Below are positions 1,250-23,744 of a DNA stretch of 64,000 bases, one piece after another. This DNA comes from an uncultured delta proteobacterium. Lineage in GTDB: Bacteria; Myxococcota_A; Polyangia; Polyangiales; Polyangiaceae. Positions within the stretch are counted from its first letter, which is position 1. The number at the start of each line of letters is the position of its first letter. Under the pieces are notes generated by a model. It ran no database searches. It saw only the letters and a list, made by a program, of their open reading frames with translations, and was not told the origin of the DNA. Position numbers and translations under genes: made by a program. The DNA lies in contig CAVQUB010000022.1 of NCBI GenBank assembly GCA_963716725.1, positions 32,001-96,000 of the forward strand, in the 5' to 3' direction.

Positions 1250-2203
1250 CTAGCAGGTTGGTGCCGAGGTTTCTTCGTTGCCGAAGACGTTGTCCGCGCC
1301 GATGCGGTACAAGTCGTAGGCTACGAAGCCGATGTCGACGATGGTGTCGAAGATGCGACCGGAAGGGTCCACCTGAGTGATGGGGTCGCCGCCGCCGTAG
1401 CTGTAGGGCAGCAGTCTGCGCGGATCGCCGATGCCCTCCTCCGGCTCGAACACGGCGACCGGATCTGGGCTGACAAAGATCCCGAGCTCCGGTCGATAGG
1501 CGCGCGCGCCAAAGTCGCTGAGGCCTGAGCCTGCATCACGTTCCTTGCCCACGAAGGACCGCGGCTCCGCGCGTCCACTGTGAAAACGCTCGGCGCCATA
1601 GGCGTGGTAGGAGACCTGGCGGACCACGTCTCCCTTCGCGCTTGTCACCGCGAGAGGACTGCCGTGGAGATCGGCGTGGAAGAAGACCGCGGACGCCGGC
1701 ACCTGCGTGATCGGCTTGCCCTTGTCTGGGTCGTCACCGCCTCCGCACGACAGAACGAGTGCGGCCGCCGCGAGGCTGCTCAGATGTTGGTTGCGCGCAC
1801 GGCCGAACGCCGCAGCGTCCTTGGCGTGCTTCGTCCAGTGGCCCAACGCGTTCTGAACGGGTGTCTTTGCTGACGTGGACGTCCGGAGGGGCCGTTTCGC
1901 CCCCGCCCGCGTCACGACCCCCTTCACAACCGCGCGCACGCCATCCGCACCCGCCCGCAGCAGCTTCGGAGCCGCGCGTACTGCGGCGGGCAGCGCGCGC
2001 ACCAGCGCGATGCCGTCCAGCAGGGTGGCCGCGAACAGCAGTCCCTCCGCCGCGCCCTCAGCCCCTTTGCGGTTGAGCTGCTGCACTTCGCGCAACTCGG
2101 CGCTCGAGCAACCGCGCTGGGCTGTGCAGCGCTCGAGCTCTTGGTGGGCAACGAGACCGTCCGGCTCCCGCCCATCGCGGTCCACCAAGGTGCTCGGGTT
2201 GTT
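1250..2203 (-). pseudogene. Orphan RHS toxin cassette 2: truncated toxin tip fused to a second RHS-core remnant
   Basis: Starts at NNP, has the shared ~100-aa linker, then TPVQNALGHWTKH, then LVLSC...FFHADLHGSP...FVGKERD...GARAY...SPDP...DPITQVDPSGR. No upstream RBS or convincing start. Confidence 0.75.
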
Positions 2204-2388: not shown

Positions 2389-2745
2389 CTACTCGACGTA
2401 GTCCTCGAATTCCCAATGCCCCAGCCGAGACAGCTTGACCGCAATGGCTTTCCAGTCGGGCCCATCACAGGAGTCACAGAACTCACTGATATACGTGTGT
2501 ATCGATGAATAGTCGTATTGCTTCATGACAAGATGATGCCGCGGAAAGAAGACAGGCACGCTGGACAGTTGCTCCTCTACCCAACGCGGGCTGCACACCA
2601 CGATGTCAAAAGACTCTTCGCCAGCTCCTCCCAATGGGCCAATCATCGCTTGGACGAGCACGGCAAAACGGGCCGGGTCCTCCGGCACCAACTCGGCCAG
2701 ATCGTCTGCATCAGGGCTGTGAAGCCGCTTCAGTTCTGCCTTCAC
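2389..2745 (-). CDS. Imm8-family immunity protein
   Basis: MKAELKRLHSPD...IGP..G.GEESFDIVVCSPRW...RHHLVM...WKAIAVKLSRLGHWEFEDY; GTG start overlaps the toxin stop (GTGA). Confidence 0.85.
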   Translation of the reverse strand: MKAELKRLHSPDADDLAELVPEDPARFAVLVQAMIGPLGGAGEESFDIVVCSPRWVEEQLSSVPVFFPRHHLVMKQYDYSSIHTYISEFCDSCDGPDWKAIAVKLSRLGHWEFEDYVE

Positions 2746-3377
2746 GGTGCTACCGGCGCAGACACGATATCGAGGTGTCCATTGGACGTCCATCGACCAG
2801 AAGGCACGGCGCGCTGTTCGAAGTTCGATTGAACGCGACCCAGCTTGGGTTTCCAGGACGGAGGCCGAAACTGGCGAAGTCCGTTTGTGCTGATCAACGT
2901 CTTGCCATCGCTGGCCACCCTGGCCCCTTTTCCGACCCAAGCATGCCCGAGGCGTTCCGCCGTCGCCGCGTCCGCCGCCCCCAATCCGAAGTTTCCACTT
3001 CCCTTGGCCGCGTCGCGCAGAATCCCCATCTCTCGGGCGGCAGCTTCGCTCATCTTTCGCCGGCCTCCGCTGCCCCCCGCCCGCGTCACGACCCCCTTCA
3101 CAACCGCGCGCACGCCATCCGCACCCGCCCGCAGCAGCTTCGGAGCCGCGCGTACTGCGGCGGGCAGCGCGCGCACCAGCGCGATGCCGTCCAGCAGGGT
3201 GGCCGCGAACAGCAGTCCCTCCGCCGCGCCCTCAGCCCCTTTGCGGTTGAGCTGCTGCACTTCGCGCAACTCGGCGCTCGAGCAACCGCGCTGGGCTGTG
3301 CAGCGCTCGAGCTCTTGGTGAGCACCGAGACCGTCCGGCTCCCGCCCATCGCGGTCCACCAGCGTGCTCGGGTTGTT
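2742..3377 (-). pseudogene. Orphan RHS toxin cassette 1 with an intact CdiA-CT-like (probable BECR RNase) tip
   Basis: NNPSTLVDRDG, shared linker, then GNFGLG...LGHAWVG.G...SDG..LIS..GLRQFRPP...QSNFE...NGHL. In-frame stop shortly upstream of NNP. Confidence 0.8.
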
Positions 3378-3764: not shown

Positions 3765-4190
3765 TCATTGAAGCGATCTCATGAGAGCCACGCCCCGCTC
3801 TTTGGTGGCGTGCTCAAGACGGGCTCTCGTGAAACGTTCTTGATCGCCTGATAGCTTCTCGCGCAACTCGGCGATGACGGTACCCAACCGCTCCAGCACC
3901 TGCTCCAATGGTTCAGGCTCGGTCTTCGCAAGCACATCTTCAATCGCGCGCCAACCCATCGCGATCTCAACGTCGTCAAACTGGTAAAACTTCTCCGGAC
4001 AGCATATCGACGCAACGTCAAGAAACTCCTGACCTCGGTCTCTGACTATCTTCAGGAGGATCCCGTTGACGCACAGCACCACTTCGCCGTCGCCAAACTG
4101 GGATCTCTCCTCGTAGCTGACAACTTCAACAGGCTCGATACTGGCTGCTGCCGCAAGCCTCCGGGCCCGTGCTTCCAAGGACTCGACCAC
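3765..4190 (-). CDS. Putative immunity protein for the main RHS toxin tip
   Basis: 141 aa, directly downstream of the toxin; AGGAGG RBS overlaps the toxin TAG at 4201; lower GC than the flanks. Confidence 0.75.
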   Translation of the reverse strand: MVESLEARARRLAAAASIEPVEVVSYEERSQFGDGEVVLCVNGILLKIVRDRGQEFLDVASICCPEKFYQFDDVEIAMGWRAIEDVLAKTEPEPLEQVLERLGTVIAELREKLSGDQERFTRARLEHATKERGVALMRSLQ

Positions 4191-4200
4191 GACACTCCTC

Positions 4201-7200
4201 CTAAGGCTTTGACATACGCAGGCCGTCCTCCGCGACCTGAAACCCCTGTGATTTCAGGTACTGCAACTCTCTGGCAAAGAAGCTACCAGCGCGCGCCTGA
4301 CTCAGCCGGGGTTGCCAGGACGATGTCGTCTCCTCTGGCGATCATTCGATCAAGAAACTTCCGGTTCGCTGCCCATTGTTGCGCGGGCGTCATCCTATCC
4401 CAAACCTTCGTTGGGACGTTAAAACGACGTGCACCCAGCTCAGTGGCCTTCTCGACGTACGCAGGGAAGTGGCCAAGTACCGTCTTGCCTGGCGCCGTTC
4501 CAGCCCCGGGCCCGCCCCTCGCCCCCGCCCGCGTCACGACCCCCTTCACAACCGCGCGCACGCCATCCGCCCCCGCCCGCAGCAGCTTCGGAGCAGCGCG
4601 TACTGCGGCGGGCAGCGCGCGCACCAGCGCGATGCCGTCCAGCAGGGTGGCCGCGAACAGCAGTCCCTCCGCCGCGCCCTCAGCCCCTTTGCGGTTGAGC
4701 TGCTGCACTTCGCGCAACTCGGCGCTCGAGCAACCGCGCTGGGCTGTGCAGCGCTCGAGCTCTTGGTGAGCACCGAGACCGTCCGGCTCCCGCCCATCGC
4801 GGTCCACCAGCGTGCTCGGGTTGTTGGCCGCGTATGAATACGCCGTGTGCGAGGGCGAGAGAGCCGCCACTCGCTCGGGGCTATCGAGCCACAACGGATC
4901 CGGGCTGATGAAGCCGCCAATGTCGGGCGAGTAGTACCGCGCCTCCATCAGGTCCAAGCCGACGCTGCGGTCGCGCGGTGTGCCGGCGAAGACACGGTTT
5001 TCGTCGGGTGCTTCGTCCCAGCGGGTCTCACCGAATGAGTAGGTCGCGCTTGAACCCTGGGAGACGCCGGCGCCGTTCGTGATTTCCGTGAGGGAGCCGA
5101 CGCGGTCGGATAGCAGCAACGTGTCGGCTGCGGTCAGAGTGACCACCGTACCTTCCGCATCAGGCTTCTTGTCTGCGTCTGCGCCGGAGCACGCGACCGC
5201 CAATCCGATCGCCATGGTCGCGCCGACCGCGCGCTGTAGTCGAGACCAGGAAGCGGCCGAAATTCTGTGGAAGACGCGCTTGGCGAGCAGCACCCCAAAC
5301 AAGATCCCGAGCGCCATCCAAAGCCCGTTCAAGAAGACGCGCAGCCTCTCGACCTTCTGCGCATGCGGCTTGGATGGCGGCGGCGTCGGGACGGCTGCGC
5401 CCGCAGCCGCCACGCCATTCGTTTCCGAGAGGCGTGCGACGCGCTTTCCGTCCACCACGAGGTAGCGTACGAGTTTGCCGTCCACGACCTCCGACCAATC
5501 GTCGAGGAAGTGCGTGGTGCGTGGCGTGCCGGACGCAGCGCGCTCAACTCGGGTGACTCGTGAGCCATCGGCGGCAAAGGTATTCTCGACAGTGGCGCCG
5601 CTCTTTGTCGTGACACGGACCACGTGGTTCGCTCCGTCCCACTCCAGCGTGCGCTCGCCGTCACTCACGAGGCGGCCCCGGGCGTCGTATGCCAACGAAC
5701 GACCCTGCTGCTTCGCAACGGCGTGTGGCCGCGAGGGCTCGTAGGCAAGGCTGCCAGCATTGAGTGCCGCAACGCTGCTGGTGCGCGACAGCAGGCGACC
5801 CGCCGCAGAGTACTCCGAGTTCGAGTGGCCCCAGGCGCCTTCGCTGCGCACCAAGCGGTACAGATTGTCGTAGCTGTACCGTACGCTCCGTGAGCGTTCT
5901 TCCGGGATCCCGCTGCGAAGATCGCTCTGCTCGGCCACGTTGCCCACGGCGTCGAGTGTCCAGGCGATGTGCTGCACAACTGCGCCATCCGGCAATACGA
6001 CTTTGTGAGCATTCAGACGACGGTCCTGGTCATATCCGAACAGTTCGCGCACGCCCGTGGAGTACTCGCGCACGGTCTCCGTCTCGTCCGCATCGTGGTG
6101 GAGGGTCACGGCGTCGCGACCGAGACCTGCCAAGAGTCCACGCCCGTCGTAGCGCAGCCGCACGCTGGATCCGTCCGGGTATACGTGAAGACTCTCACGG
6201 TCTTGGGCGTCATATTGCCGGCTCGTGTCGTATCGCTTCGTGCCGATCCGAACGCTGCGCTGCGCCACTCGCCCGCGTTCGTCATAGCTGAGCACCGTCG
6301 TCCCGCTCGGATCTTCGACCCGTGCCAAGCGCCCGAGCGCATTCGTACCTTCATCGAAGAATCGGGTCACCTCGGACTGTCCATCGCCGTCCCAGTCCTC
6401 GCGCACCGTGCGCCCCGCGAGGTCGTGTTCGAAGTGACTTGCCTTCTTGTCGGGATACCGGTGTTCAACCAGGTTGTCGGACGCGTCGTAGATGTAGCTA
6501 TGCGTGCCTGCATTGGGATCCTTGGCTTCAATTCGCCTGCCTCGTCCGTCGTAAGCGTAGCTGGTCGCGTGCCCTTCCGCGTCGATACGTTTCGCGAGCT
6601 CGCCGGCGACAGTCCAAGTGTACTTCTGGGCGACCGCACTACCGCCGAGGGTGAATTCTCGGCGGACCACACGGTCCTGCCCGTCCCGAGTTTCGACGAC
6701 GGGAGTGTGTTCGTATGGCGAAGCGGGATCGGCCTGAGAGGCGTCCCAGCTCCGGGTGACCAACGGGCCGTAAGACTGCTTGGTGACGCGCCCAGCATGC
6801 GAGCGTGTGCTGACAACTCGGGTCGCAGCGTCTCGCCAAGAGTCGTCGCCAGGTGATGGGTCGGCAAGTGCCTTCGAATCCACGAAATCCACATCGACCA
6901 AGCGCGGACGCAACTTCCGCCGGGTTTCCCCGCGAGCGTCGTGCACCGCGACTTCGCTCAAGACCCACCGGCCTTCGTCGGCCTCGAACAGCGTGGCACG
7001 TGGGCGATTCGCGCCGTCATGCACTGTGATGAACCGAGTAGCTTCCTCGCCGCCACTGACGATGCGGTTGGTCGTGATCACGCGGGAAATCGGCGCGGCG
7101 AGCTCGTAGGCGTAGCCGACGGTAGGGCGCTTGGCCGAGTCTCCTGGCCGGGCGATCCCCGTGATTCGCCCGAGAGAGTCATATTGATAGGCAGTTGCGA

Positions 7201-9418
7201 CGCCGTTGAAGTCTTCGAATCGAATGATCGCACCGAACCGTGCGTCGTATTGCACGCGCTGAGTCAGTCGACGCTGGCCCGTCTCCACATGCTCTGCGAC
7301 CAGCGCAACCCCCGCGTCGTCCCAATCGAAAGCGCGCACTCCACTCTTCGCGTCCCGCGTCTCCACCGGATTCCCGTGCGCGTCGTATTTCGATGCGACC
7401 ACCTCATCAAATTCGTCCAACCCCGGCCCGACCCACGCTTCTTGTCGCGTCAAGTCACCGCGGGTCAGTTTGCCCAAGGGCATGCCGACGAAGGGATCGC
7501 CATCGTAGTAGCTGCGGGTCATGCGCACGCGGGCGCCGCTGGCGTCGGTGAGCTCTTCGGTGGCTGGGCGGCCTAGGATCCACTCCGTGGCGTCGTTGGC
7601 GAAGGTGCGGACGGTGAGCGCTTCGTCGGTGCCGACTAGTTTGTCGCCGGCAACGACTTCACCCCAGCGGTATTCGGCGATCTGGTTGCCGTAGCTGTCT
7701 TCCTCCCACTCGGTGAGCGTGGTGCGGGCTGCGGAAGGGTCCGTGCCTTCGATGTATTCGACGCGCTCGCTGGATTTGTAGCCATAGCTGATGGGCGTGC
7801 CGTCCCCGGCGCTGGCCACGGTCTGCGAGGTGTATTCGTTCGCGGTGCGATCGAAAATCTGGCCCTGGTCGTTGCGACGTTCGTGGGTCAGCACGGCGCC
7901 GCGCAGGGAGCGCAGGGTGAGCCCCAGGTCGAAGCTGGTGTCGGTCAGAAGCGTGGGCGTGTATTCGTCGCCCAGGGCACGCTCGACGCCACCCGCGAAG
8001 CCGGCGAAGGTGCGCTCGACCGCGTCCCACGCTCCGTCACGGTACAGGTACTCGGTCGCCATCAGTGGATCGCCGAGGGACATGTCCGTCTCGACGCGGG
8101 ACACGACGGGCATGGCGATGTTCATGCGGGTGCTCCAGCCTTTGCCGGCGTCGCGGGCGCGGGCGGCGTGCTGGGCGGCGGGCTCGTAGCTGATGCGGGT
8201 GATCTTGCCCAAGCCGTTGTCGATGACCGTCATCAGACCGGCGCGTCCCTTGGGGAACAGCTCCAAATAGCGCCACGCGCTTTCAGGCGATCCGCTGGTG
8301 TCGACCCACACGATGTCCGTCGTGCCCGAGCCGTTCATGTCGGCGAAGCCCGCAAACGTGCCCGGCGCCTTGTTCGGTGTGCCGCTGATCTGGACGACGT
8401 CTGCGAACTGCCCGGCGGCGGTGGCCCGCGCCACGGAAACCTGGGTGACGCCGAGGTGCACCAGATCGACGAGGCCGTCGCCGTTCAGATCCACGAGTTG
8501 GTACGGATCGTCTTCGCTGAAGGCCGGCACGCCGCTCGCGGAGGCTGAGGCCTCGAACACGCCGCGGCCGCGGCCTAGCCAGTAGCTCAGGGCACCCGAG
8601 CGCAGGAATGCCAAATCGAGCAGCCCGTCTCCGTTGACGTCGGTGAGATGCGTCTTGCCGTTCGAGAAGCGAAGTTCTTGCTTCGGATCGATGACGCCGA
8701 TGGTCTTGGGCGACGCGAAGTCCTTGCCGCCGAGGTTTGTTCCGACCACGAGGCCGGCTGCGCTGGTCGCGACGAAGTCGATGCGTCGGTCACCGTCCAG
8801 ATCGGCGAGGCGAACGTCCGGATCCTCGAAGGACAAGTTCGGCACCGTCGGGATGGCCACGCTCGGCGACCAATGCGTGGCGTCGAGGCCGGGGAAGTAG
8901 CGGAACTGGCTGATCCCACTCTTGGCAACCAGATCGATGGCGCCGTCACCATCGAAGTCCGCGAGGCTCACACCCTGCTGTTCGAGGCTGACCGACGGCG
9001 AATCTGCCGCCTGCCAATCGACCGCGGGCTGCCAGCTCTTGCCGTCGTGGTTGACATAGCTGCGGAAGCTGCCGGCTTTGCCGACCAGCAGGTCGGGCAG
9101 ACCGTCGCCGTTGAGATCAGAGAGCGCGACGCTGGGCTCCACCGGCGAGCGACCAGGCGGCGAGGTCATGCTCACCAGCTCACCGCTCTTTGTCAGCTCG
9201 CCGCCGGTGTAGCTGTAGCGCAGCGTGGGCAACGCCGTTTCGCCGTCGGCGCCCACCAGCTGGATGCTCTCGAGTAGCGAGCGTGCGCCGGTGGCGTAGC
9301 CAAGTGCGTAGCGTCGAACCAGTTCGACGCCCACGCGTACCTCGATGTGTGCGAGGCGCTTTTCAAGACGCTGCTCGATACCGCTCGAGAACAGGACGTG
9401 CGAGTCGGGCCTCCGTTC
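4201..9418 (-). CDS. TcB-TcC-like fusion (SpvB tail, FG-GAP repeats, TcdB-mid, YD/RHS repeats, RHS core, toxin tip); 5'-truncated, +1 frameshift near 4306
   Basis: DLNGDGLPD/DFDGDGAID/DVNGDGLLD repeats; IDNGLG; RTFAGF; YD repeats; ARYYSPDIGGFISPDP...YSYAANNPSTLVDRDG. Frame continues upstream of GTG 9334 as ERRPD...SG...KRL..IEV. After the shift the tip reads LSQARAGSFFARELQYLKSQGF...KP* (TAG 4201). Confidence 0.9.
4522..4825. repeat. Cassette repeat copy 3 (coding part only, inside the main RHS gene)
   Basis: 304 bp matching 1900-2203 and 3074-3377; the boundary falls exactly at the NNP codons. Confidence 0.95.
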
Positions 9419-9572
9419 AATGAGAGGCCCTATCGGGCTCAGCGTCAGGCGATTGCGTGATTTCTCGCTACGTGATCGCGAGTCGCGACGCGCTCCATCG
9501 AGCTCGGAATAGTCCGCAACCCGCCTGATGACCGACCCGAGGGGGAGGGGAAATCACTCTGGAGGTCCGTCA

Positions 9573-22364: not shown

Positions 22365-23744
22365 CTAGTCGGTGCTGCCCGAGCCGCTGTCGCCCGAGCC
22401 GCTGTCGCCCGAGCCGCTGTCGCCCGAGCCGCTGTCGCCCGAGCCGCTGTCGCCCGAGCCGCTGTCGCCCGAGCCGCTGTCGCTGGGACCGTCGTCGTCG
22501 GTGTCGTCGTCGGTGCCGTCGTCGTCGTCGGTGCCGTCGTCGTCGTCGGTGTCGTCGTCGTCGTCGGTGTCGTCGTCGTCGTCGGTGTCGTCGGTGTCGT
22601 CGTCCTTCTCGCGCTTCGGCGATCCGGCGCGCGCCGCCTCTGCGCCAGCGTCCTCCTCGTCGTCGCGCCGTCCCAGAAACGCCACGGCGCCCATCGCCGC
22701 CGCGATGATCGCGGCGAACACGCCTCCGGGGATCCCCTTGCCTTCGTCGCCGCGTCCAGCCTGATCGAAGGCCTCGCGGAACACCGCTTCGTCCTGAAGC
22801 CCGATCAGCTGGCGGTGGCCGACCCAGGTCGTTGGCAGTCCCTGAAAGCCCGCTTCGCGGAGGGTCTTGCCCTCACGTTCGATGCGCTCGGAGGTGGTGC
22901 TGGCCTGCATGCAAGCATCGAAGGCCTTCGGGTCGACGCCCACGTCCACGGCGAGACGCCGGATGTTGGGCATCGAGAGGTTGTCGTCGTCAAACAGCCG
23001 ATCGGCCATCTCGTCGCCTTTGGCCTGCGCTTCGGCGCACACCGCGGCCTTGGCCGCGTCGAGCGCCCGCGTGTGCCTCGGCAGCGGCATGTTCAGGCGT
23101 ACGAAGTTCACGCGTCCCTCGTACTCCTTCACCAGCTTCTTCAGCCGTGGGTGCAACGCTCGGCAGAACGGGCACTCGAAGTCGGCGAACTCGACGACGT
23201 TGATCTTACCCTTTTGGTAGTAGCTGGCGATGCCGGGTGGGATCGGCAGGTTGGGCCGAAAGCTCGGCCAGATCAGCGGCGCCCCGACGGCGGCGGCGGC
23301 GAAGCACACCCACGCCCAGCCCATGAATGGGTCTCGCGCAGTGGGGCCCCGCGAGTGCACCCAGGCTGCAAATGCCGCGACGAGTGCGGACACATCGACG
23401 ACCACGCAGAGCACGCAGAACTCGCGGATCACGAAGGCTTGGACCGCGATGAAGATGGCGGCCAAAACGCCGCCGAGCGCGGCCATGGGGAAGACCCACT
23501 TGGCGAGCTCGCGGGAGAGCGAGACCACCAAGAGCCCCGCGAAGCCGGCGATACCGATGGCCGGCACCGGGACCTGGCCGCCGAACAAATAGCCCCAGCC
23601 GCTCGCTCGCACCGCGGAGCAACCCGAGCCCGGACTGCAGAACGAAGGGTTGTAGCTCACGTAGTCGATGAGCAGCGCGCCGCTGACGCCAAGCGCGACC
23701 AGCGCAGCGAGGCGCATGACTACGAGCCAGAGGGCGAATCGCAC
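22365..23744 (-). CDS. VKOR-DsbA (thioredoxin) fusion membrane protein with acidic tail
   Basis: CSPGSGC loop, CVLC, then EFADFECPFC; Asp-rich tail ending in DSGSG repeats. Confidence 0.85.
   Translation of the reverse strand: MRFALWLVVMRLAALVALGVSGALLIDYVSYNPSFCSPGSGCSAVRASGWGYLFGGQVPVPAIGIAGFAGLLVVSLSRELAKWVFPMAALGGVLAAIFIAVQAFVIREFCVLCVVVDVSALVAAFAAWVHSRGPTARDPFMGWAWVCFAAAAVGAPLIWPSFRPNLPIPPGIASYYQKGKINVVEFADFECPFCRALHPRLKKLVKEYEGRVNFVRLNMPLPRHTRALDAAKAAVCAEAQAKGDEMADRLFDDDNLSMPNIRRLAVDVGVDPKAFDACMQASTTSERIEREGKTLREAGFQGLPTTWVGHRQLIGLQDEAVFREAFDQAGRGDEGKGIPGGVFAAIIAAAMGAVAFLGRRDDEEDAGAEAARAGSPKREKDDDTDDTDDDDDTDDDDDTDDDDGTDDDDGTDDDTDDDGPSDSGSGDSGSGDSGSGDSGSGDSGSGDSGSGDSGSGSTD
22377..22481. 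repeat. 15-bp coding tandem repeat x7 (DSGSG)
   Basis: GCCCGAGCCGCTGTC x7. Confidence 0.95.

Follow-up and report, generated by a model that had tools for sequence, protein, structure and literature searches.

Rhs and Tc proteins form a shell in which the core plugs the 'top' and a propeller closes the 'bottom' gate (PMC9935623). Classical Tc toxins are described as being released by cell lysis. How Rhs/Tc cocoons leave the cell without lysis or a type VI secretion system (T6SS) is poorly understood, and T6SS-independent, signal-bearing Rhs proteins have been described in Myxococcus (PMC10433427). In this study, a 64-kb stretch of DNA from an uncultured soil myxobacterium of the Polyangiaceae (contig CAVQUB010000022.1; its whole length is called the window) was analyzed around a truncated Rhs gene, which encodes two hydrophobic helices and a lipobox-like cysteine directly before the Rhs core. 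That relatives conserve this element suggests export of the toxin capsules and their attachment to the cell envelope; taken with N-terminal Sec signals and lipoprotein partners, it points to a Sec/Lgt/LspA route.

The family resembles the BC cocoon of the Tc (ABC) toxins (TcdB2-TccC3) in its FG-GAP propeller, TcdB middle/N region, Rhs shell and core plug, to which relatives add SpvB; unlike that cocoon, it has an N-terminal signal peptide, a predicted internal transmembrane helix and a lipobox. Its partners are lipoproteins of ∼560 and ∼1220 amino acids without sequence similarity to TcA, whereas Tc toxins use a soluble TcA of ∼2500 amino acids, and its tips are, unlike those of Tc toxins, polymorphic, of nuclease type and accompanied by immunity genes and orphans. 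Signal peptide, SpvB, propeller, Rhs and variable toxin are also combined in the 'TcdB/TcaC' export class (Zhang et al. 2012, PMC3482391); in the excerpts of that paper used here, neither an internal helix nor a lipobox is described ahead of the core. With myxobacterial SitA (PMC5562445), a lipoprotein toxin delivered by outer-membrane exchange, the family shares a lipobox-bearing signal of type II, a C-terminal toxin that is polymorphic and of nuclease type, and cytoplasmic immunity. The likeness is one of principle only; SitA, as described there, carries its lipobox at the N-terminus and has no Rhs shell or core. Myxococcota teneurin-like proteins (PMC13018210) enclose a toxin in a YD shell, with predicted Sec and type II signals in Gram-negative hosts, and one of them (9ifo) was among the fold matches of the model described below; their type II signal stands at the N-terminus of the whole protein instead of before the core. 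Mosquito SGS1 (PMC9935623) combines an Rhs/Tc-like shell with predicted transmembrane helices and foreign domains in shell loops, but its helices follow the core as enclosed cargo and lack a lipobox. Full-text literature searches turned up no account of an Rhs core preceded by a transmembrane helix and a lipobox.

Architecture of the insert

The Rhs protein and its parts are listed below by window coordinates. Boundaries within the insert were obtained by index arithmetic on amino acid positions, helices and lipobox by a hydropathy scan and a pattern search.

4283..9334, minus strand: open reading frame (ORF) for an Rhs/TcB-TcC-like fusion protein of 1683 amino acids, 5′-truncated (ORF call, Pfam/NCBIfam and homology)
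5339..5428, minus strand: Pro/Ala-rich flexible linker, amino acids 1303-1332, leaving the last shell strand; low-confidence coil in the AlphaFold2 model
5282..5338, minus strand: helix 1, amino acids 1333-1351, 19 uncharged residues, of transmembrane length by hydropathy, lying within the model helix of amino acids 1323-1355
5231..5281, minus strand: basic loop, amino acids 1352-1368, five Lys or Arg and no Asp or Glu; interpreted as lying in the cytoplasm and serving as n-region of the internal signal
5189..5230, minus strand: helix 2, amino acids 1369-1382, 13 uncharged residues followed by Cys1382; read as h-region and lipobox
5135..5188, minus strand: acidic tether after the cysteine, amino acids 1383-1400 (index arithmetic), disordered in the model
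4793..5134, minus strand: Rhs core, the shell plug, starting at amino acid 1401 (PF03527-like segment and TIGR03696 Rhs_assc_core; profile and fold matches)
4286..4792, minus strand: C-terminal toxin domain, the window's own tip, for which the Pfam search gave no family

Pfam and NCBIfam profiles identified FG-GAP propeller repeats (FG-GAP_3, E = 3.4e-24), the TcdB middle/N region (PF12256, E = 6.7e-25), RHS/YD repeats (PF05593, E = 1.7e-31; TIGR01643, E = 8.7e-26) and the Rhs-associated core (TIGR03696 at amino acids 1432-1514, 53 bits against a cut-off of 32.5). In the same scans of this protein no PAAR, VgrG or prePAAR module was found. The nearest solved relative by sequence was the TcdB2-TccC3 fusion (E = 1e-18), and this match and the domain content together identify the product as a cocoon of TcB-TcC type that ends in a variable toxin tip. 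In the core, the Asp residues at columns 250 and 282 of the aligned fragment, candidates for the catalytic pair of the aspartyl autoprotease, were at least 90% conserved in alignments of 17 and of 41 sequences.

A transmembrane hairpin and a cysteine before the core had been noted at 5130-5420 in the initial annotation. The observation is real and correctly placed: the insert comprises amino acids 1303-1400, on the minus strand, and separates the last strands of the shell from the Rhs core. Amino acids 1333-1351 are the most hydrophobic 19-mer of the entire protein (Kyte-Doolittle 2.17), and Cys1382 (codon 5189-5191), one of three cysteines in total, is its sole lipobox-like match, with Ala at position −1. 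The two helices are not equivalent, helix 1 being of transmembrane length and helix 2 of signal-peptide length.

An AlphaFold2 model of amino acids 1230-1520 was built from the 41-sequence alignment (mean predicted local distance difference test score, pLDDT, 84.8). It gave the order shell strands, coil, helix (amino acids 1323-1355), helix (1361-1382), coil and core strands, in which the second helix stops exactly at the cysteine and is followed by 22 residues of low-confidence coil before the core. Foldseek returned 40 matches at E ≤ 0.001 with this model, comprising Rhs effectors, TcBC, teneurins and SGS1. The query-normalized template-modeling score (TM-score) of ∼0.5 fits a model of which the beta parts match solved shells and cores and the insert does not; the flanks were matched by solved Rhs, TcBC and teneurin shells, and the insert itself is a helical hairpin between low-confidence coils. 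A sequence search of the PDB with the 291-amino-acid fragment gave matches limited to the core motif.

Conservation among relatives

A word-indexed search with amino acids 1270-1520 yielded 18 proteins. Those spanning the insert site, P0003 (84% identity), P0004-P0006 (37-40%) and P0009, all had a helix, an Arg-rich loop and a hydrophobic stretch with Cys at its end. A gap at this site was seen in other SpvB-Rhs fusions (P0008, P0010, P0014), which lacked the element. An exhaustive HMMER search with amino acids 1230-1520 against 1.84 billion representatives gave 9508 matches at E ≤ 0.001, the best 150 of which were examined. By a strict pattern, 55 of 165 proteins carried a lipobox and hydrophobic run at most 80 amino acids before the core. 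By a relaxed rule, the element was present in 74 of the 141 relatives having at least 30 amino acids of upstream sequence, and 53 of the 74 also showed helix 1; several carriers missed by the strict pattern do have the hairpin and the cysteine, with unusual residues next to the latter. Among the 107 relatives with at least 130 amino acids upstream, the strict lipobox occurred 47 times in the 80 amino acids before the core (5.5 per 1000 amino acids) and six times elsewhere (0.053 per 1000), an enrichment of ∼100-fold.

Conservation of the cysteine had been named beforehand as a check. It was invariant in both alignments, as one of 13 invariant columns with 17 sequences and as one of only three with 41 sequences at 22-84% identity.

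Species-representative genomes were scanned with a narrow alignment reaching close relatives, which gave 14 loci from metagenome-assembled genomes labeled Polyangiaceae, Polyangiales, Myxococcales, 'Deltaproteobacteria' or 'Proteobacteria'. The element was found in 14 of 14 locus cores having upstream sequence, always together with helix 1. A search started from the distant carrier P0133 among longer proteins found 16, of which 12 have a detectable core and lack the pre-core hairpin and four have no detectable core.

A different insert, with the look of a dockerin or EF-hand, occupies the same pre-core loop in P0085 and P0068; given these two proteins and P0099 (see below), the loop seems to tolerate insertions. 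Family genes also occur in tandem (L009, 2549-8803 and 8807-11584; L001, 3-2747 and 3219-6902), full-length copies being followed by long 5′-truncated copies that keep the hairpin. L008 and L010 share one contig, on which entire operons are duplicated ∼15 kb apart.

Resemblance to a lipoprotein signal

Relaxed-rule carriers were aligned on the cysteine and compared with the lipobox consensus. Position −1 was Ala in 42%, Gly in 31% and Ser in 15% (together 88%), positions −2 to −5 were mostly Leu, Ala or Val, and position +2 was Gly in 35%, Ser in 28% and Ala in 12% (together 75%), with Gly/Asp/Pro-rich sequence downstream. The uncharged run had a median length of 14 residues before the cysteine versus 21 in helix 1. 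Median charges were four Lys or Arg and no Asp or Glu in the loop, and one Lys or Arg and three Asp or Glu in the 20 residues after the cysteine, so that the positive-inside rule is obeyed. At the level of sequence, then, the family data support helix 2 and its cysteine as bearing all hallmarks of a type II signal peptide. The cysteine is residue 1382 of 1683 in the window copy and lies at ∼1620-1670 in full-length relatives; unlike in ordinary lipoprotein precursors, the putative signal is thus not N-terminal. An internal translation start was rejected as a general explanation, no conserved Met column preceding the signal-like stretch in the 17-sequence alignment.

Export signals and the truncated window copy

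N-terminal signal peptides were called by a hydropathy threshold in proteins of at least 1750 amino acids starting with Met. An N-terminal Sec signal was present in 12 of 12 full-length carriers of the insert and in 9 of 20 noncarriers. Ten of the 12 pass the preset threshold; the other two, P0026 and P0038, fall narrowly below it and have signal peptides by eye. With a relaxed threshold, chosen after these near-misses had been seen, the association gives Fisher p = 0.0016. None of the 11 signal-less proteins carries the insert. In all eight locus genes with an SpvB start the signal peptide precedes SpvB, and SpvB (PF03534) is also carried by P0004-P0006.

The window copy lacks this part. Its homology starts at residue ∼217-239 of full-length relatives, so that ∼234 amino acids are missing, including the SpvB start and the signal peptide. 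Homology runs upstream of its GTG codon to ∼9418-9451, where an in-frame stop at 9446-9448 (minus strand) closes the frame. The missing SpvB/signal part was not found anywhere within the 64-kb window, and a simple inversion inside the window was rejected for that reason. In L001 and L009, full genes are likewise followed by 5′-truncated copies. The window copy is probably defunct, and it has probably inherited the element without being able to use it in the way proposed below.

Proposed mechanism and alternatives

The insert may be a two-part membrane-targeting element in the loop where the chain enters the core plug from the outer shell, namely a stop-transfer helix followed by an internal lipoprotein signal, which would tie the plug pole of the Sec-exported cocoon to the membrane; on hydropathy, pattern and conservation, this is the reading that we prefer, and we consider it about as likely as not. 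In intact members, a type I signal peptide would send SpvB, the beta-propeller and the Rhs shell through Sec to the periplasm. Helix 1 would then stop transfer and span the inner membrane, the Arg-rich loop would remain cytoplasmic, and helix 2, as an internal type II signal peptide, would restart export of the core and toxin, after which the invariant cysteine would be diacylated by Lgt and the chain cut before it by LspA. The topology would be shell outside, basic loop inside, and core and toxin outside, which fits the N-terminal Sec signals of the full-length carriers. The product would be one cocoon of two chains, held at the plug pole by a transmembrane helix and a lipidated plug. As the core plugs the pole opposite the gate, an anchor at this junction would tie the closed pole and leave the gate free for a translocator; the beta-propeller gate would face away from the membrane, toward the lipoprotein partners, which include a protein predicted to fold like TcA.

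Membrane targeting, as proposed in the initial annotation, thus agrees with the signal hallmarks, the charges, the Sec signals and the lipoprotein partners, all at the sequence level, but not with the window copy itself, which has no signal peptide. Two further proposals of that annotation are doubtful. It had foreseen a lipidated fragment of core plus toxin; the usual Rhs autoproteolysis separates the toxin from the core, so that the toxin would no longer be joined to it and the lipid would sit on the plug. It had also suggested sorting to the outer membrane, which conflicts with helix 1, as this helix would keep the shell, of which the plug is part, in the inner membrane.

Several observations weigh against a stop-transfer helix with an internal type II signal. 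At the preset threshold, the association of signal peptide and insert gives Fisher p = 0.06, and the topology of the family cannot be assumed for the window copy, which is without an N-terminal signal and has Ala, instead of the usual Leu, Val or Ile, at position −3 of its lipobox. About a quarter of the carriers have unusual residues near the cysteine (Thr, Gln or Val at −1; Asp at −2), and relative P0099 has a hairpin without Cys. From the AlphaFold2 model only the order of the elements was read. Lipidation and LspA cleavage are read from hydropathy and pattern, the searched literature gave no earlier case of a type II signal peptide at an internal position, and the stretch left on helix 1 after cleavage, a spent signal, would be an odd product.

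The nearest rival is an uncleaved helical hairpin anchor, with both helices in the inner membrane, the chain whole and the cysteine in another role, for instance at the interface with the membrane or as half of a disulfide to a partner. Two helices and a positive loop would suffice for it, and it would accommodate the carriers with poor lipobox residues and the one without Cys; even so it is unlikely, because helix 2 is consistently short (14 versus 21 uncharged residues, as above) and ends in a small residue, Cys and a small residue or Gly followed by an acidic tether, and because an invariant cysteine would be superfluous in a plain anchor. That the signal serves mainly stand-alone or orphan 'signal-core-toxin' modules comparable to SitA, and reached full-length genes through module swapping, we regard as improbable. 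The short ORFs that start with a signal and Cys directly before the core (P0058 and five others) speak for it, as does the orphan of the window that keeps a signal-like stretch and not helix 1. Most of the short ORFs, however, come from 1.5-3.9-kb contigs and could be fragments or artefacts of gene calling, the element and helix 1 are intact in all 14 full-length or long locus copies, and a passive scar would not preserve helix 1 and the positive loop.

The helices might also be hidden in or against a soluble shell and insert into the target membrane at delivery, like those of SGS1 or the N-terminal transmembrane regions of some T6SS Rhs effectors. SGS1 is described as keeping its predicted transmembrane helices soluble inside the Rhs shell (PMC9935623), and the window copy has no export signal; the helices of SGS1 follow the core as cargo, though, and those found here precede it and would stay on the shell, and the lipobox-like residue frequencies, the positive-inside pattern and the link to N-terminal signals would be left unexplained, which makes this account very improbable. 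Stretches rich in Ala, Leu, Gly and Val are common in high-GC proteins, which would fit hydrophobic, low-complexity sequence arising by chance in a GC-rich gene; this explanation is refuted to near certainty by the invariant cysteine, by retention of the element at 22-46% identity and by the ∼100-fold lipobox enrichment at one site.

Should a stop-transfer helix and internal lipoprotein signal be confirmed, the rules of lipoprotein biogenesis would reach internal sites, and predatory or social myxobacteria would have a new mode of polymorphic-toxin delivery. A bolder extension, which we consider doubtful, is that Polyangiales own an envelope-anchored Tc injection machine, assembled in or on the envelope from a BC cocoon exported by Sec and a TcA-like translocator that is split and anchored by lipid. 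Internal cleavage of the cocoon by LspA would leave its shell anchored in the membrane and its plug lipidated, and with the anchor at the plug pole such a syringe would point away from the membrane of the producer. If true, it would provide the first example of type II signal processing in mid-polypeptide, and Tc/Rhs toxins could be deployed against neighbors independently of lysis and of T6SS.

Operon partners

Two genes next to the Rhs gene, divergent from it, are homologues of the operon partners found elsewhere in the family (∼40% identity over ∼1180 amino acids for the larger).

9528..11171, plus strand: lipoprotein of 547 amino acids, homologue of the first gene in the three-gene operon of the family; weak DUF1565/LIC10774-like match
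11168..16390, plus strand: lipoprotein-like protein of 1740 amino acids, of which amino acids 1-1185 are homologous to the ∼1220-amino-acid gene that precedes Rhs genes; predicted fold TcA-like

The larger protein has an extra C-terminal part (amino acids 1246-1739) that resembles the 547-amino-acid type. A gene of ∼1220-1450 amino acids precedes the Rhs gene on the same strand in L003, L005, L006, L007 and L010 (L003, 1807-5460; L006, 1518-5201; L010, 1797-5468), and in L010 it is itself preceded, twice, by a ∼560-amino-acid gene (104-1822 and 15745-17427). Both partners have lipoprotein-type N-terminal signals wherever their N-termini are visible; the signal of the window's 1740-amino-acid copy has an unusual residue at −1.

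The larger partner received no annotation from Pfam, from PDB sequence searches (alone or as a profile) or from the Atlas, which gave 'hypothetical protein' clusters, and a lenient Pfam scan of its eight homologues found no TcA family. Its AlphaFold2 model (eight sequences, pLDDT 68) begins with beta-sandwiches, continues with a helical domain (helices of 56, 80 and 99 residues) and closes with a C-terminal beta domain of poor model quality; between its two longest helices the chain turns through an uncharged stretch that is conserved. In Foldseek, 17 of the 20 listed matches at E ≤ 0.001 were TcA proteins, aligned over ∼1000-1100 columns with TM-scores of 0.11-0.16. A TcA-like nature of the ∼1220-amino-acid partner is on this modeling a moderately supported lead.

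Toxin tips, immunity genes and orphans

Downstream of the Rhs gene, the window holds the following features.

3765..4190, minus strand: candidate immunity gene of 141 amino acids without signal peptide
2742..3359, minus strand: orphan toxin tip, starting with a 99.3%-identical copy (3074-3377) of main-gene positions 4522-4825
2389..2940, minus strand: Imm8-family immunity gene (Pfam) behind the orphan tip
1250..2188, minus strand: chimeric orphan, reaching 1250-2302 in all, with a 98.0%-identical copy of core end and toxin start at 1897-2203

The toxin tips of the family comprise RNase A-like, HNH, EndoU, barnase-type ribonuclease, Ntox10, Ntox50 and HINT-NucA domains. An ORF without signal peptide directly follows the Rhs gene in the window and in eight loci (L002, L003, L004, L006, L007, L008, L011, L012); in L009 the candidate has a signal peptide, and L001, L005 and L010 have no clear abutting candidate. 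Because the ORFs behind the Rhs genes are mostly without signal peptides, the toxins most likely act in the cytoplasm of the target.

In the chimeric orphan, the copied segment continues in frame into a signal-like stretch, a cysteine (1745-1747), a Gly/Asp-rich stretch, a second Rhs core that has diverged, and finally a different tip; boundaries within 1250-2188 are approximate. This segment had been described as an unrelated core remnant in which the pattern of the insert recurs. A second helix-like stretch with Cys does recur there, but helix 1 is absent, and far from being unrelated the segment is a chimeric orphan of the same locus in which a copy of part of the main gene (∼305 bp, 98% identical) comes first. 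A near-identical protein, P0159, is present in the database.

Core end and toxin start are thus present in three direct copies of ∼305 bp, 98-99% identical (4522-4825, 3074-3377 and 1897-2203), repeats of a kind that allows orphan tips to recombine into the main gene. The short ORFs P0058, P0064, P0078, P0130, P0135 and P0046 start with Met, a basic and hydrophobic stretch and Cys directly before an Rhs core and tip. They may be independent small lipoprotein toxins or fragments, mostly on contigs of the small size given above.

Other features of the window

Just past the 1740-amino-acid gene, a short tandem repeat at ∼16560-16650 (plus strand) encodes the same eight residues about four times over within a single frame. 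A VKOR-DsbA/thioredoxin fusion protein is encoded at 22365-23744 (minus strand). The window is otherwise ordinary chromosomal DNA from ∼17 to 64 kb, with genes for DnaJ, an RNase R-type protein, seryl-tRNA synthetase, the shikimate pathway, a MoxR-type ATPase and a transglutaminase.

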